Of a stretch of 64,000 nt of DNA, positions 51,849 to 56,971 are shown piece after piece. Position numbers and translations under genes: made by a program. Source of the stretch: an uncultured cyanobacterium (lineage in GTDB: Bacteria > Cyanobacteriota > Cyanobacteriia > CAKZMO01). The first letter of the stretch is position 1, and each line of letters begins with the position of its first letter. The DNA lies in NCBI GenBank assembly GCA_963719515.1, contig CAVRCJ010000003.1, forward strand, positions 512,001-576,000, in the 5' to 3' direction. The notes beneath the pieces were generated by a model that was not told where the DNA came from, made no database searches, and saw only the letters and a list, made by a program, of their open reading frames with translations.

Positions 51849-54764
51849 ATGAATCGAGTTGCCCTCGTCGTCGGCATCAACACCTACAGCCACTTCAACC
51901 CGCTCAGCGCTCCTGCTAAAGATGCTGAGGCGATCGCCCAGCGGCTGCAGCAGGATGGGGAGTTTAAGGTGATTCGCTTGCCGGAGGCCATTGGCCGCGA
52001 TGGTGAAGGCGGCTATACCCGCAAGGCGGGCAAGCGAACCGAGGTGACCCAAGCGGAGCTAGAGCAGGCCCTAAAGCAGCTCTTCCGGCCCAATAGCCCC
52101 CAAACTCCGGACGCCGCGCTGTTCTACTTTTCCGGCCACGGCCTCCGCGATGCCGAGGGTGCTGAGGGGCTGGACAAGGGCTACCTGGCCACCAGCGAGA
52201 CCGACCCCAACCAGTCCCGACCGGGCCTATCCCTGGCCTGGCTCCAAAACCTGCTGGCCCGCAGCCCCATCAAAAACCAGATCGTCTGGCTGGACTGCTG
52301 CCACAGCGGCAGCCTGCTGATCGACGTGGGGTCCGCCAACCCTGGCCACAGCAGCGACCATAACCGCTGCTTTGTTGCATCTTCTCGCGACTTTGAGCAG
52401 TCTTGGCAAGACCTCAACAGCCCCTACAGCGTGCTGACCAAAGCGCTGCTGGATGGCCTCGACCCATCGCGGGTAGCGCAGCGGTGGGTTGACTCGTTTT
52501 CTTTGGCGGACTACGTCAACCAAGCCCTTAAAGGAGACCTGCAGTCGCCCATTTGCACCAACTTTGGCGATGCCATTGACCTGACCCATGCCGGGCAACT
52601 GGCGGTAGCAGATGCCAGCGCTACCCAGGGCACAGACATCTGCCCCTACAAAGGGCTCAGCTACTTTGACTGCAACGGCGAAGACCCCAAGTATTTCTTT
52701 GGCCGCGAGGCGCTGACGGACCAACTGCTGGATCATGTGCGGCAGCAAAGCTTTTTAGCGATTGTGGGCGCATCGGGCAGCGGCAAATCCTCGGTGCTGC
52801 GGGCGGGGCTGCTGCACCAGCTACAGCGGGGGCGGCGACTGCTGGGGAGTGACCAGTGGGAGGTGCGCGTGATGCTGCCGGGGGAGCAGCCGCTGCAGAA
52901 TTTGGCGCTGGCCTTTGTGGATGAGGACCTGCCGAAGCTGGACCGGGCGGCGCAGCTGGGAAAGGCGGAGCGGCTGATTAAGGCGGGGGCCGATGGGCTG
53001 CGGCGGCTGGTGAGCACGTCGGACGCGCCGAAGGTGGTGCTGGTGGTGGACCAGTTTGAGGAGGCCTTTACCCTGTGCCAAGATGCGGCGGAGCGGGAGG
53101 CCTTTTTTGGCGTGCTGCTGGGGGCGCTGGAGGCTCTGCCGGAGCGGCTTTGCCTGGTGGTGGCGATGCGATCGGACTTTGTGGGCAAGTGCTTTGAGCA
53201 GGACTACGGCGGGCTGGCGCGGCAGGTCCAGAAAAATTTGGTGGCGGTGACGCCGATGAACCGCGATGAGCTGACGGATGCGATTTTGGAACCGGCGAAG
53301 CGGGTCGAGCTATCGGCGGAGCCGGAGCTGGTGAAGGTCGCTGCTGGATGATGTGGAGAAGTCGCCGGGGAATTTGCCGCTGCTGCAGTACACGCTGCGG
53401 GAGCTGTGGAACCAGCGGCAGGAAAATACGCTACAGCTGAAGACCTACGCCCAGCTGGGCGGGGTGACGGGGACGCTGCAGCAGCGGGCGAATGCGGTGT
53501 ACGAGTCTTTGGATACTGCGCAGCAGGCCACGGCGCGGCATGTGTTTTTGAATTTGACCCAGCTGGGGGAAGGGACGGAGGACACCCGGCGGCGGGTGCT
53601 GAAGCAGAGCTTGGTGACTAGCCAGCATCCTGCGCCAGTGGTGGATGCGGTGGTGCAGCGGCTGGCGGATGAGAACCTGGTGGTGACCAGTGAGCTGGTG
53701 GGCAAGGGGAGTGAGGGGCAGCGGCTGGCGGTGGTGGATGTGGCCCATGAGGCGCTGATTCGCCATTGGCCGCGATTGCGGCGGTGGCTAGACGCGGACC
53801 GGGATTTGCTGCGGCAGCAGCGGAAGATTGAGCAGGCCGCTGACGAGTGGACACAGCAGCAAGTTTGTAAGCAGCTATTTGCTTGAGGGACGACAGCTGA
53901 CCGATGCAAAGCTGTTTGAGAAGAAACATGAGGACAGTCTACCGCTCTCGGAAATAGCCAGCGAGATACTTGAGCAGAGTAGTCGCAAGCGTCGCAACAA
54001 TCGGCTTAGGCTAACTATTCTAGGCGCAATTATTCCACTTGGACTAGCAACTTATGCGGGTATTCAAGTGGCTGAATACATGAGACTGCGTCCTCATTGG
54101 GATACCCTTTACGCCTACGACAGCGAGGCTAATCCTATCTCCAGAAATGCTCTCGTTAGAGCTGCTGAGACTATCAACGGCTCTAGACGTTCCCTCGCTA
54201 GAATCAGCTTGCCAAATGCTGACCTCATCAGCGCCAACCTCATCAGCGCCAACCTCATCGACGCCAACCTCAGCAGCGCCAATCTCCGCAGAGCCGACCT
54301 CAGCAGCGCCGACCTCATCAGCGCCGACCTCATCGACGCCGACCTCAGCGACGCCAACCTCATCGACGCCAACCTCAGCAGAGCTAACCTCCGCAGCGCC
54401 GACCTCAGCAGCACCGACCTCCGCAGCACCGACCTCAGCAGCGCCGACCTCTTCAGAGCCGACCTCTTCAGAGCCAACCTCAGCAGCGCCAACCTCAGCA
54501 GCGCCGACCTCCTCATCGCCAACCTCAGCAGCGCCTTTCTGCTAGCCAGTGACTTTCGAGAATCGAAAAACCTCACTGCTGAAGCAATTCAATGGTGACG
54601 AGCCACCGTTACTCTGCAACATCGCGCTGCCGTCCTATCTCAACGATATCGACCCCGATCGCGATTGCGACCAAATGCCTCAAGCCTTAAGCGATCGCTA
54701 CAACATCCCCCTAGAAGAAGCCCAGCAAATCGTAGACGTAGCCCGCAAAAAGCAATGGGACTAG
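51849..54764 (+). pseudogene. Caspase (C14)-nSTAND1 NTPase-TM-pentapeptide-repeat protein split by three +1 frameshifts
   Basis: FSGHG/LDCCHSG dyad, CPYKGL, GASGSGKSS, VDQFEE, LPLLQYTL, HEALIRHW; shifts near 53336, 53850 and 54583. Confidence 0.88.
54218..54532 (+). repeat. 21 x 15-bp pentapeptide repeat A(D/N)Lxx
   Basis: GCC RAC CTC NNC NNC units. Confidence 0.95.
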
Positions 54765-54940
54765 ACCTCTAAAATCTGCTCAGCCGTTACCACAAGTCCC
54801 TCAACTACAGAGGTCACAACGCGATCGCGCATTCCGTGAACCGATAGCGATCGCCTCCAGCGTAAAACCCCCGTTACCGCCTAGGCTGCGGCAAGACCAC
54901 GCCTCGCCCAATCTCGCCCCGCTTCCCAATAAATTTTAAC

Positions 54941-55363
54941 TTTTAGGCGGGAAGTCCCGCGCTTTAATCTTTGATTAAGCGTCGGGATGAGAGCCGCGTG
55001 AGCCGGAGGTGAACAGTACTTGTGCATGCTAGAATGTATACATATCAATTGTTTAGCAAGGTTTTCCACCCCTCCAAGGTGTTCGTCGAGAAAAGTATCA
55101 CCCATAGAAAACGTAACGGTGACGCGACACAGTTTTTGGAAGAAAGGAAGCTCAAAAAAGCAATCTGTCTGGGGTTGGTCATTGCCCGGACGTAAAACAA
55201 ATTTCCTATGGATGGGATCCAATCGGGGCCAGTACAGCTTGCTGTATGGCTAGACAGGACCAGATGAAGTAGGAAACCTTCTTGTGCGGTACCCATTCGT
55301 TTGCGGTGCGTGAGCCAAGAAGCCCGCGCTATATACGCAGCATCAGCGTCGGGAGTATGTCAC
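54941..55363 (+). mobile_element. Non-autonomous IS200/IS605-derived mini-element (no tnpA or tnpB)
   Basis: Left and right end hairpins closely match those of the 16228-17710 element; ends in GTCAC, preceded by TTTAAC. Confidence 0.82.
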
Positions 55364-55377
55364 TTTCGCTAGTACGG

Positions 55378-55406
55378 TTGTCACGGGCCGCAACATCCGC
55401 TAAAGT
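55378..55406 (+). promoter_or_regulatory. Sigma70-type promoter TTGTCA-N17-TAAAGT
   Basis: -35 at 55378-55383, -10 at 55401-55406, immediately before a structured leader. Confidence 0.6.
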
Positions 55407-55412
55407 TTCTAT

Positions 55413-55627
55413 CCATGGGTGCCAACCGCACCCAACTTACGAGACGCCCAATACTTTAGCGCGCCCCCTGGCAGTGCGACCACACTAGCCAGAGAGCATC
55501 ACCACCGCGTTGACAGTACCAACGCGATGGCTACCGCCGATTTTATCCTGTGGTAGCCATCCCGTTCTTCACCGGTGGATGGCTAGACGATCTGGGCGTC
55601 TTTCCTCCAAACCACAGGAAAAACCTC
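55413..55627 (+). promoter_or_regulatory. Structured ~215-nt 5' leader with alternative pairings
   Basis: Several perfect inverted repeats, including anti-RBS TCCTGTGGT/ACCACAGGA. Confidence 0.6.
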
Positions 55628-56001
55628 ATGATTTACCTTCTCAGCGACCCCCAGGGCCGCACCGATTCCCCTACCCATCCGATCGCCTTCTCCGCCCCCC
55701 GTACGGGCGACCGGCCGGTCGCCCCCTACATCGGAACGCCCCCCATACCGCGATCGCCCCCCACGCGCCGCATCCCGAAGCCGCCGCACCGGAATTCTAT
55801 TCCCTGCGGCTGATCGCCCTTGGCCACCCCCACGCCGTCGACAACTGTCGCCTGCGGCTGCATAAGCTGGGCTACGCCGACCCCAACGACTGGTCCATCC
55901 CGCTGCCGATCATTCGCTCTACTGAGGTGATCCGCGCCGCCAAACCGGGCGAAATCATGCGCATTCTCACCAAGCGCGTTGCGCCTCCAGCGATCGCGTA
56001 G
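55628..56001 (+). CDS. Small cyanobacterial hypothetical protein (LHKLGYADPNDWS motif), probably frameshifted at a C6 run (55739-55744)
   Basis: ATG 55628 with AGGA RBS is one frame off the domain LRLIALGHPHAV...LGYADPNDWS...GEIMRILTK. Confidence 0.6.
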
Positions 56002-56150
56002 GAGCCGTATCCCCAAGGGTGATATAGGGGCGCAGCATGACTGTGCCCTTACGGCCCCTATCGCGCGCGCCGTATCTCCGAGAGCGAGGGCGATCGCCCC
56101 ACCGGCTACAATTCAAGAACTGACACGCTCTGTGTGATAGGAGTCGAAAC

Positions 56151-56756
56151 ATGGCATACGTCCTATCTCAACCCCTGACCTTCGAGGCCTTTTTGGCTCA
56201 ATATGGTGACAGCCCTCGCTATGAGCTAGCCGATGGAGAGCTGATTGATATGGAACCCACCGGCCCCCATGAAGCCGTTGCAGGCAAAGTCACCAGCAAG
56301 CTCAACATCGAGCTGGAGCGCCAAAGCCATCCGTGGTTTATTCCCCGAACCTGCATCATCCGGCCTTTCTCCGACGTAGCCACCGCCCGACGCCCCGACG
56401 TTATCGTTTTGGATGAAACAGCCCTCGTCAATGAGCCGCTATGGGAGCGAGAACCAGTGATTACGCTAGGAACGTCAATTAAGCTAATCGTCGAGGTGGT
56501 CAGCACGAACTGGGAAACTGATTATGCCCGCAAGGTGGACGAATACGCCTTACTGGGTATACCTGAATACTGGATAGTAGACTATCGCGGTCTAGGTGGC
56601 ATAGCATTCATCGGCAGACCAAAACAACCCACTATTACCGTCTGCCAGCTCATGGGGGATGATTACGATCAGGCCCAGTACCGTCTTGGACAGGTTATTA
56701 AATCAGCTCTACTACCAGCGCTGCAGCTTAAGCTTGATGACGTGCTGCCTCGATAG
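56151..56756 (+). CDS. Uma2 (DUF820) family endonuclease-like protein
   Basis: RYELADGELI, RRPDVIV, EVVSTNW...K, GIPEYWIVD; AGGAG RBS. Confidence 0.92.
   Translation: MAYVLSQPLTFEAFLAQYGDSPRYELADGELIDMEPTGPHEAVAGKVTSKLNIELERQSHPWFIPRTCIIRPFSDVATARRPDVIVLDETALVNEPLWEREPVITLGTSIKLIVEVVSTNWETDYARKVDEYALLGIPEYWIVDYRGLGGIAFIGRPKQPTITVCQLMGDDYDQAQYRLGQVIKSALLPALQLKLDDVLPR

Positions 56757-56898: not shown

Positions 56899-56971
<73 letters not shown>

Follow-up and report, generated by a model that had tools for sequence, protein, structure and literature searches.

The window, the whole stretch of DNA analysed here, comprises 64,000 nucleotides from the genome of an uncultured cyanobacterium (the source genome, G000; G000:C3:512001-576000). 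Its plus strand carries a promoter, a structured leader, and a small ORF of the LGYA..W family, which together with signals on the opposite strand make up the module described below (Table 1). Every element that a previous sequence-only reading of this locus had listed, i.e., the promoter, the hairpins, the long-range stem, the three competing partners of one segment, and the ATG, was found in place. The leader (55410-55650) folds at -90.6 kcal/mol (z -6.94), and none of 200 shuffled sequences was as stable. The sense promoter pattern by itself is not above chance in the region (2 found versus 1.5 expected); among aligned copies of the leader it is kept, with TTG present in 83, 83, and 82 of 85 rows and TA..T in 83, 83, and 85 of 85. 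From ATG 55628 to TAG 56001, the ORF of this copy (the query copy) spans 374 nt, which is not a multiple of three; its N-terminus and conserved core lie in different frames, with the break in a C-rich stretch at approximately 55731-55788, and the query copy is probably a pseudogene with an intact leader.

The miniature element upstream of the module is presumably of the IS200/IS605 type. Farther upstream, a Caspase-nSTAND1-pentapeptide gene (51849-54598) is split into three ORFs, which may reflect decay or an assembly error and which bears on whether the frameshift of the module is real. Directly downstream lie a Uma2 gene (56151-56756) and tRNA-Phe (56899-56971), and synteny is broken because the queD-like gene beyond tRNA-Phe has a different neighbour in genome G003. 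Just 1 of the 49 copies in the source genome lies within 3 kb of a tRNA. Beside other copies are genes that we take to be psbA-like and chlN-like, and these neighbours, like the Atlas taxa, point to a cyanobacterial source. The paralogues at G000:C8:42027 and G000:C14:276440, which are close kin, both stand tail to tail with psbA-like genes.

A comparison with Rfam, which had been proposed as a check, matched no class at the leader, neither c4 nor a curated riboswitch aptamer. At the gathering score, two tRNAs were the only matches in the whole window; at E values up to 10, positions 54800-56200 gave one chance match, RAGATH-18 (E 0.45), inside the upstream insertion element, and 20 distant loci gave four chance matches, none of them c4.

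Table 1. Features of the module and its upstream neighbour in the window (positions count from the first nucleotide of the window).
Feature	Positions	Strand	Remarks and basis
Multicopy insertion-sequence-like miniature element	54933..55364	.	13 nt separate it from the -35 box; adjacent to the module but no component of it; 99% copy on C7, dozens of relatives in the genome
Sense promoter	55378..55406	+	-35 TTGTCA from 55378, 17-nt spacer, -10 TAAAGT ending at 55406; conserved columns; pattern in 48 of 49 G000 copies
5' hairpin H0	55416..55434	+	Variable, missing from some subfamilies; fold and leader comparison
P1 5' strand, segment a (anti-anti-RBS)	55441..55450	+	Partner 55593-55602; double changes in 7 of 8 pairs
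Predicted cis antisense RNA	55463..55532	-	+1 A at 55532; at least 70 nt, 3' end at least to 55463, possibly across 55441; inferred from sequence
Stem-loop 2 of predicted antisense RNA	55463..55497	-	Mirror of H2; hypervariable loop 55477-82; 548 of 552 cells pair
Sense hairpins H2 and H3	55468..55492 and 55506..55526	+	Most likely chiefly the mirror image of the predicted antisense RNA
Stem-loop 1 of predicted antisense RNA	55501..55531	-	Contains the H3 mirror; hypervariable loop 55513-19; 5' helix 85.9% paired
Segment c	55527..55537	+	Partner 55551-58, hides anti-RBS 1; competing c/d helix 85.7% paired, double changes in 6 of 7 pairs
Antisense -10 box TAAAAT (ATTTTA on +)	55540..55545	-	Conserved; without a conserved -35
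Anti-RBS 1 (55546-54, subfamily-specific) and segment d (55554-62)	55546..55562	+	Pairing counts, per-sequence duplexes
Segment e	55577..55585	+	Partner d; 89.1% paired; 93 G·U versus 15 A·C
P1 3' strand and anti-RBS 2 (TTTCCT)	55593..55606	+	Main anti-RBS of other subfamilies; duplex energies
Ribosome-binding site (AGGA 55616-19) and ATG 55628	55611..55630	+	Sequence, conserved columns
Small ORF of the LGYA..W family, frameshifted here	55628..56001	+	Conserved beta-alpha-beta core 55795-55980

A multicopy family of leaders and soluble proteins

The locus does not stand alone; it is one member of a 49-copy family in the source genome. With a covariance model built from 76 leaders, 49 leaders (E no higher than 3e-7) and four fragments were detected in G000 (150 of 819 candidates scored), and the model matched 40 of 141 genomes of the class, G000 included, across 10 families (17 candidates scored per genome). 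The leader is nearly always located 5' of one small soluble protein family: a full family ORF follows the leader in 42 of the 49 G000 copies, the other seven being broken, and in 18 of the 19 copies taken from as many other genomes. Matches to the protein core lie at 27 places in G000; each of the 12 other family genomes also has them, up to 56 in number, and the protein profile matches 21 of 151 genomes of the phylum and 517 cluster representatives. In Kovacikia, one large plasmid carries a protein match, and the leader RNA model gave no match at that locus. A second, divergent subfamily (YVEQ..W core) has the same two-promoter architecture at G000:C3:457526, C8:103515, C10:415843, and approximately 20 more places. 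For the comparisons that follow, alignment A3 holds 76 of 88 leaders (truncated, long-insertion, and run-on rows were left out), and alignment A7 holds 46 of those 76; counts taken over them overstate independence because the aligned sequences are kin.

Substitution patterns in the core (dN/dS 0.31 over four pairs of at least 90% identity, and 0.23 over 24 pairs of 80-90%) indicate that the ORF is under purifying selection; a ratio of about 0.9 over all pairs was set aside because it pools distant, saturated pairs. At 12 congeneric loci, three share a flank with a G000 copy, five have flanks that map far from any copy, one is ambiguous, and three are uninformative, a pattern suggesting that copies turn over between congeneric genomes.

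The protein family had been called uncharacterised, and so it remained, with no family or fold assignment found. Intact proteins are 79-158 aa long, with a variable, proline-rich N-terminus and a beta-alpha-beta core that is modelled confidently. Type I toxins are typically, though not universally, small hydrophobic membrane peptides, a trait that this protein lacks, and in a search for transmembrane helices none of the 42 intact proteins reached KD19 1.6. A homodimer was predicted with a score of 0.72 (best control 0.00), with contact agreement between runs of at least 89% and pLDDT of at least 80; of 30 solved homodimers, 20 attained this mark, as did 1 of 23 monomers. In the predicted interface, strand 1 lies antiparallel to strand 1 of the partner. 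P0026 is a natural tandem fusion of two cores (model pTM 0.61). Searches with seven proteins gave no NCBIfam family and nothing in PHROGs beyond two matches of one protein at E 0.38, no matching record was returned for the protein in the phage search, PADLOC matched none of 128 members, and Pfam matched one of 128 (E 0.0079), with no SymE or AapA-like homology; no toxin homology was found in NCBIfam, PADLOC, or Pfam. In the Atlas, feature neighbours were cyanobacterial clusters without names, and no longer fused form scored among 7999 candidates, which is weak evidence. Fold searches of PDB and BFVD gave no match at E 0.001. The best structural matches had Z 4.2 (rmsd 4.6, 59 aligned residues) and Z 5.0 (rmsd 4.4, 73 aligned), and MinE, which ranked second, was nonsignificant (E 0.68).

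Signals on the opposite strand

The sequence-only reading had proposed a translational on/off switch, controlled by an antisense RNA or a ligand, and had named covariation among homologous leaders as a test. Such covariation is present, in helices of both strands. On the sense strand, pairing over P1, H2, H3, and d/e together reaches 84.9%, compared with 36-45% in slid controls, and 29 of their 35 pairs show double changes. In per-sequence duplexes, P1 strands paired more strongly with their own partner than with those of other copies (-13.9 versus -8.4 kcal/mol), and selection for a b/e helix on the sense strand was rejected (-10.8 kcal/mol with the own partner, -10.4 across copies). The conserved, covarying leader, the competing helices, and the occluded RBS of the earlier proposal stand; we differ as to the trigger. 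Most likely this is an antisense RNA made in cis, with its promoter lying within the leader.

Counts of A·C and G·U cells served as a strand test. In H2 on the sense strand, A·C cells far outnumber G·U cells (111 versus 3, with 11 of 12 columns involved). In contrast, c/d (58 G·U versus 20 A·C) and d/e favour the sense strand, and d/e is a sense-strand helix because of its excess of G·U cells (Table 1). For P1 (59 G·U, 40 A·C) and H3 (11 and 22), the strand test is not decisive. The 5' helix of stem-loop 1 contains, in 36 of 46 rows, a G·U pair that becomes A·C on the plus strand, so that this helix has no plus-strand form. Pairing across the antisense alignment amounts to 94%, and 17 of its 20 pairs show double changes. 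From 55532 on, the minus strand folds into two stem-loops (z -5.35); in all 76 aligned copies its fold was the more stable of the two strands, with the lower z in 70, whereas in the downstream half of the leader the plus strand was the more stable in 67 of 76. The antisense strand was also the more stable in 24 of 27 further G000 copies among those listed (five anchored a few bases off) and in all 19 copies from 19 other genomes, for which the anchor was picked by the best antisense fold. By this strand test, half of the apparent leader structure would belong to a hidden antisense gene.

A putative antisense promoter precedes this fold. TAnnnT occurs in 51 of 76 segments on the minus strand and in 26 on the plus strand, with 16.6 expected from shuffled sequences, and in 70 of 76 rows NAnnnT precedes a nearly invariant A, the implied +1, by 5-8 nt. 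Positions not used in that selection also fit TATAAT (-12 T in 49, -9 A in 59, and -8 A in 65 of the 70 rows). The antisense -10 box stands at 5-7 nt in all 44 correctly anchored G000 copies (background rate 0.123), where matches are partly selected for the box because the covariance model includes its columns; it was seen by eye at 6-9 nt in the five further copies, and in five copies from genome G159 the hexamer lies just 4 nt from +1. The sequence signature of a cis antisense gene overlapping the mRNA, that is, a promoter and a strand-specific fold, is therefore present.

Both loops of the predicted antisense RNA are hypervariable. Over 11 non-overlapping paralogue pairs, they differ at 41 of 75 and 36 of 74 sites, length differences being counted as mismatches (gapped alignment gives 0.42-0.48), compared in the same pairs with 133 of 417 four-fold sites, a yardstick that may be constrained by codon bias, 41 of 201 promoter-spacer sites, and 16 of 170 sites in the d/e loop (Fisher p 3e-5). 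Both loops thus appear to diverge faster than synonymous sites. Loop 2 is distinct in all 21 G000 copies of the alignment. YUNR motifs, which have a role in antisense pairing, occur in 35 and 39 of 76 antisense loops but in just 15 and 12 of the sense loops. The idea that the two loops kiss each other was tried and rejected (complementary run 2.09 within copies versus 2.23 across copies), and no positional enrichment of loop 5-mers was found in the flanks, in either orientation, from -600 to +900 nt in 50-nt bins. Since the loops pair neither with each other nor with the flanks, the opposite strand is the only exact loop complement found. In the 55477-55519 region of the query copy, loop 2 equals that of locus L016 in genome G002, and loop 3 equals that of a copy on C13 of G000, which hints at loop shuffling by recombination between copies.

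The same loop data bear on two other readings. Forty-nine dispersed copies, two variable loops, and 5 of 12 congeneric loci whose flanks have no counterpart beside a G000 copy could suggest a non-autonomous mobile element with bridge-RNA-like guide loops and the ORF as cargo. The loops of IS110 bridge RNA-like elements correspond to target or donor DNA found at the ends of the element, whereas the loop 5-mers here lack positional enrichment; moreover, no recombinase or nuclease domain was found in the protein by Pfam or fold searches, and most copies are not recent because close paralogues already differ at approximately 30% of four-fold sites. We regard this reading as highly improbable. In a scheme of the P1 c4 or P4 CI type, a sense RNA cut from the leader would act on complementary sites in the same transcript. 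The analogy to phage P1 c4 had been drawn at the outset together with one to type I toxin leaders; the latter remains apt. The c4 RNA family RF01695 is listed for Proteobacteria and phages in the accessible part of its description (PMC2864571), and c4 shares with the module a structured leader RNA before a small gene, whereas the regulator of the module appears to come from the opposite strand. In favour of this reading, several hairpins of the module are enclosed by a long-range stem. The failure of RF01695 to match at E up to 10, the absence of cis targets for the loops, which do not pair mutually either, and a phage search in which no record matched the protein largely refute it, and it retains a very small probability.

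No conserved antisense -35 was seen in the aligned copies, nor a general U-tract terminator, U3-4 tails following the antisense hairpins in the YVEQ..W subfamily only. Both absences would suit a sense-only switch, either a ligand riboswitch or a leader bound by its own protein, in which ANNNT would form part of a loop and the antisense RNA would not exist, and so would the covarying sense helices and the conserved RBS occlusion. Such a switch, however, leaves unexplained the A·C excess of H2, the 5' helix that exists on the minus strand alone, and the TATAAT-like -9 and -8 positions, and its loops vary fastest where a ligand pocket should be conserved; it is improbable. Returning to the antisense RNA, we consider it likely from these sequence features that it is transcribed, kisses its target, and represses it, all three jointly.

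Proposed control of translation and possible roles of the protein

Occlusion of the RBS is conserved, with the SD predicted to be sequestered by an anti-SD within the mRNA. The particular pairing proposed earlier, 55546-54 with 55611-19, was borne out in some subfamilies; over 76 rows, 56.9% of cells are paired in register, and other subfamilies use the P1 3' strand instead. Per-sequence duplexes accordingly gave two anti-RBS solutions, anti-RBS 1 in the c/d loop (the query copy, -16.4 kcal/mol) or the P1 3' strand, and in both the alternative partner (c or a) sits in the 5' half of the leader. Opening the RBS of a native leader costs 7.5 kcal/mol on average (74 of 76 leaders). When a..c was masked, the mean was 13.6, with a rise in 70 of the 74 leaders and a fall in none; shuffling a..c gave 11.8 (64 rises, 2 falls). 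With the mask restricted to the two-hairpin core H2..c, the cost rose in 24 of 74 and fell in 2 (mean 8.2 versus 7.5), and in the query copy there was no rise (3.77 versus 3.76), so that repression would need either a longer antisense RNA reaching segment a or cleavage of the duplex. The nascent prefix contains a folded P1 in 73 of 74 leaders. The SD was at least 50% unpaired in just 5 of 71 unbound leaders (71 of the 76 were used), so that most are mostly OFF at equilibrium, and translation may take place only from nascent or processed transcripts.

Taken together, these features are consistent with a dispersed type I toxin-antitoxin-like module. From the sense promoter would come an mRNA with a leader of approximately 215 nt and a small soluble homodimeric protein, and from the opposite-strand promoter inside the leader a two-stem-loop RNA at least 70 nt long. 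As long as the mRNA is unbound, its 5' segments a and c would compete for the anti-RBS strands and make RBS opening cheaper. The antisense RNA would recognise its own mRNA through the two copy-specific loops and would repress it in one of two ways: by releasing the anti-RBS strands, should it extend to segment a, or through RNase III-type cleavage of the duplex. The loops would diversify so that approximately 50 copies avoid silencing one another. The multicopy module, the covariation, the strand asymmetry, the -10 box, the loop divergence, and the purifying selection come from sequence comparison, and the least supported part of the scheme is that the protein is toxic and the module addictive; for the whole, toxicity and addiction included, we would put the chance slightly short of even. 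Traits counted as toxin-like are the 7 broken copies of 49, the turnover of sites, and the regulator genes beside leaderless homologues.

These regulators come from distant loci, where the leader model matched 1 of 29, and that weakly. At 16 of the 29 leaderless loci, an HTH or RHH gene lies upstream, divergent in 14 and with 13 at the curated cut-off (the domain scan covered one neighbour each from 21 of the 29 loci), whereas none of the 49 leader copies has a match to three narrow profiles of those regulators within 750 nt. It seems that a dedicated control element, of either the RNA or the protein kind, accompanies the gene. XRE-type HTH or RHH_5 genes are divergent from the family gene at L033, L035-L037, L042, L044-L046, L048, L051, L054, L059, L060, and L026, and one divergent HTH/RHH neighbour is fused to an HNH domain. 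The leaderless homologues at L034, L039, L040, L042, L044-L046, L055, and L057-L060 have short single-hairpin leaders with variable loops, several of them built on the repeat GCGATCGC; these are possibly a second, simpler control element. An addiction-module family in the fullest sense, i.e., a new soluble toxin fold in approximately 50 copies per chromosome, with a two-loop RNA barcode under diversifying selection and control switched between protein and RNA among lineages, HTH/RHH repressors acting where the leader is absent, is a less likely extension of this reading.

The same antisense control could govern a protein that is not a toxin, such as a small dimeric nucleic-acid- or protein-binding regulator whose dose is set per copy (e.g., an antirepressor-like protein or an early gene of a mobile element). 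All of the RNA evidence fits this equally, as do the soluble beta-alpha-beta model with its predicted strand-1 dimer interface and the 42 of 49 intact ORFs under purifying selection, and the divergent HTH/RHH neighbours of leaderless lineages resemble repressor/early-gene switches. It offers, however, no clear reason for approximately 50 copies with mutually distinct loops or for congeneric site turnover, and we hold it to be a tenable minority reading, of about one chance in three.

Relation to known systems and significance

As a type I-like module, the system may be compared with several known antisense pairs. The symE/SymR pair is present in single copy in E. coli. A cis antisense RNA there overlaps the 5' UTR of a small gene that encodes something other than a membrane peptide (PMC5416894, PMC5415839); the antisense layout is similar to that of the module, and SymE homology was not found in the module protein. 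In the H. pylori aapA/IsoA systems, the antisense RNA lies opposite the 5' UTR and forms two complementary stem-loops, kissing loops set cognate specificity, several chromosomal copies exist, some inactivated, and the SD is sequestered in the full-length mRNA (PMC5416894). For the module, a 5' UTR antisense position, two stem-loops, and SD sequestration are likewise predicted, and it shares the copy-specific loops and the multiple copies. The same text describes AapA1 as a 30-aa peptide, an IsoA1 duplex that masks the RBS, IsoA1 promoter mutations within the coding region, and six loci (PMC5416894). By that account, aapA/IsoA differs from the module in encoding a peptide of approximately 30 aa rather than a soluble protein of 79-158 aa and in having six loci rather than 49 copies; moreover, IsoA1 covers the RBS, whereas the predicted antisense RNA of the module starts approximately 85 nt upstream of the SD and must act indirectly.

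FinP is described as a short cis antisense RNA with two stem-loops, whose loops give specificity and whose binding leads to refolding of the target (PMC5415839). The module would operate in a similar way to aapA/IsoA and FinP, yet it is a member of neither because its protein differs and its predicted antisense RNA does not cover the RBS. FinP/traJ, ColE1 RNA I, and pT181/pIP501 are plasmid antisense systems (PMC5415839), whereas the module is chromosomal and multicopy, lacks a replication or transfer gene, and shows no attenuator terminator. The one cyanobacterial type I-like candidate found in the literature searched was Synechocystis ncl1450/ncr1470, with a 36-aa single-transmembrane protein and an antisense RNA that is itself coding (bioRxiv 10.64898/2025.12.20.695498); by that description, both are cyanobacterial pairs of a small gene and an overlapping antisense RNA, the Synechocystis pair being limited to one locus. 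No description of this module was found in the literature searched, although motif supplements or subscription papers may contain one.

The observation is real, and the module is conserved and was not found in the libraries searched. Type I systems are hard to find by homology, and the presence of dozens of natural paralogues per genome, in approximately 10 families of one class, opens the way to direct tests of kissing-loop diversification and allows one to ask how many orthogonal antisense pairs can coexist in one cell. The family could also supply orthogonal RNA switches for cyanobacterial engineering, and it would give a regulatory context to a widespread protein family without a Pfam model.
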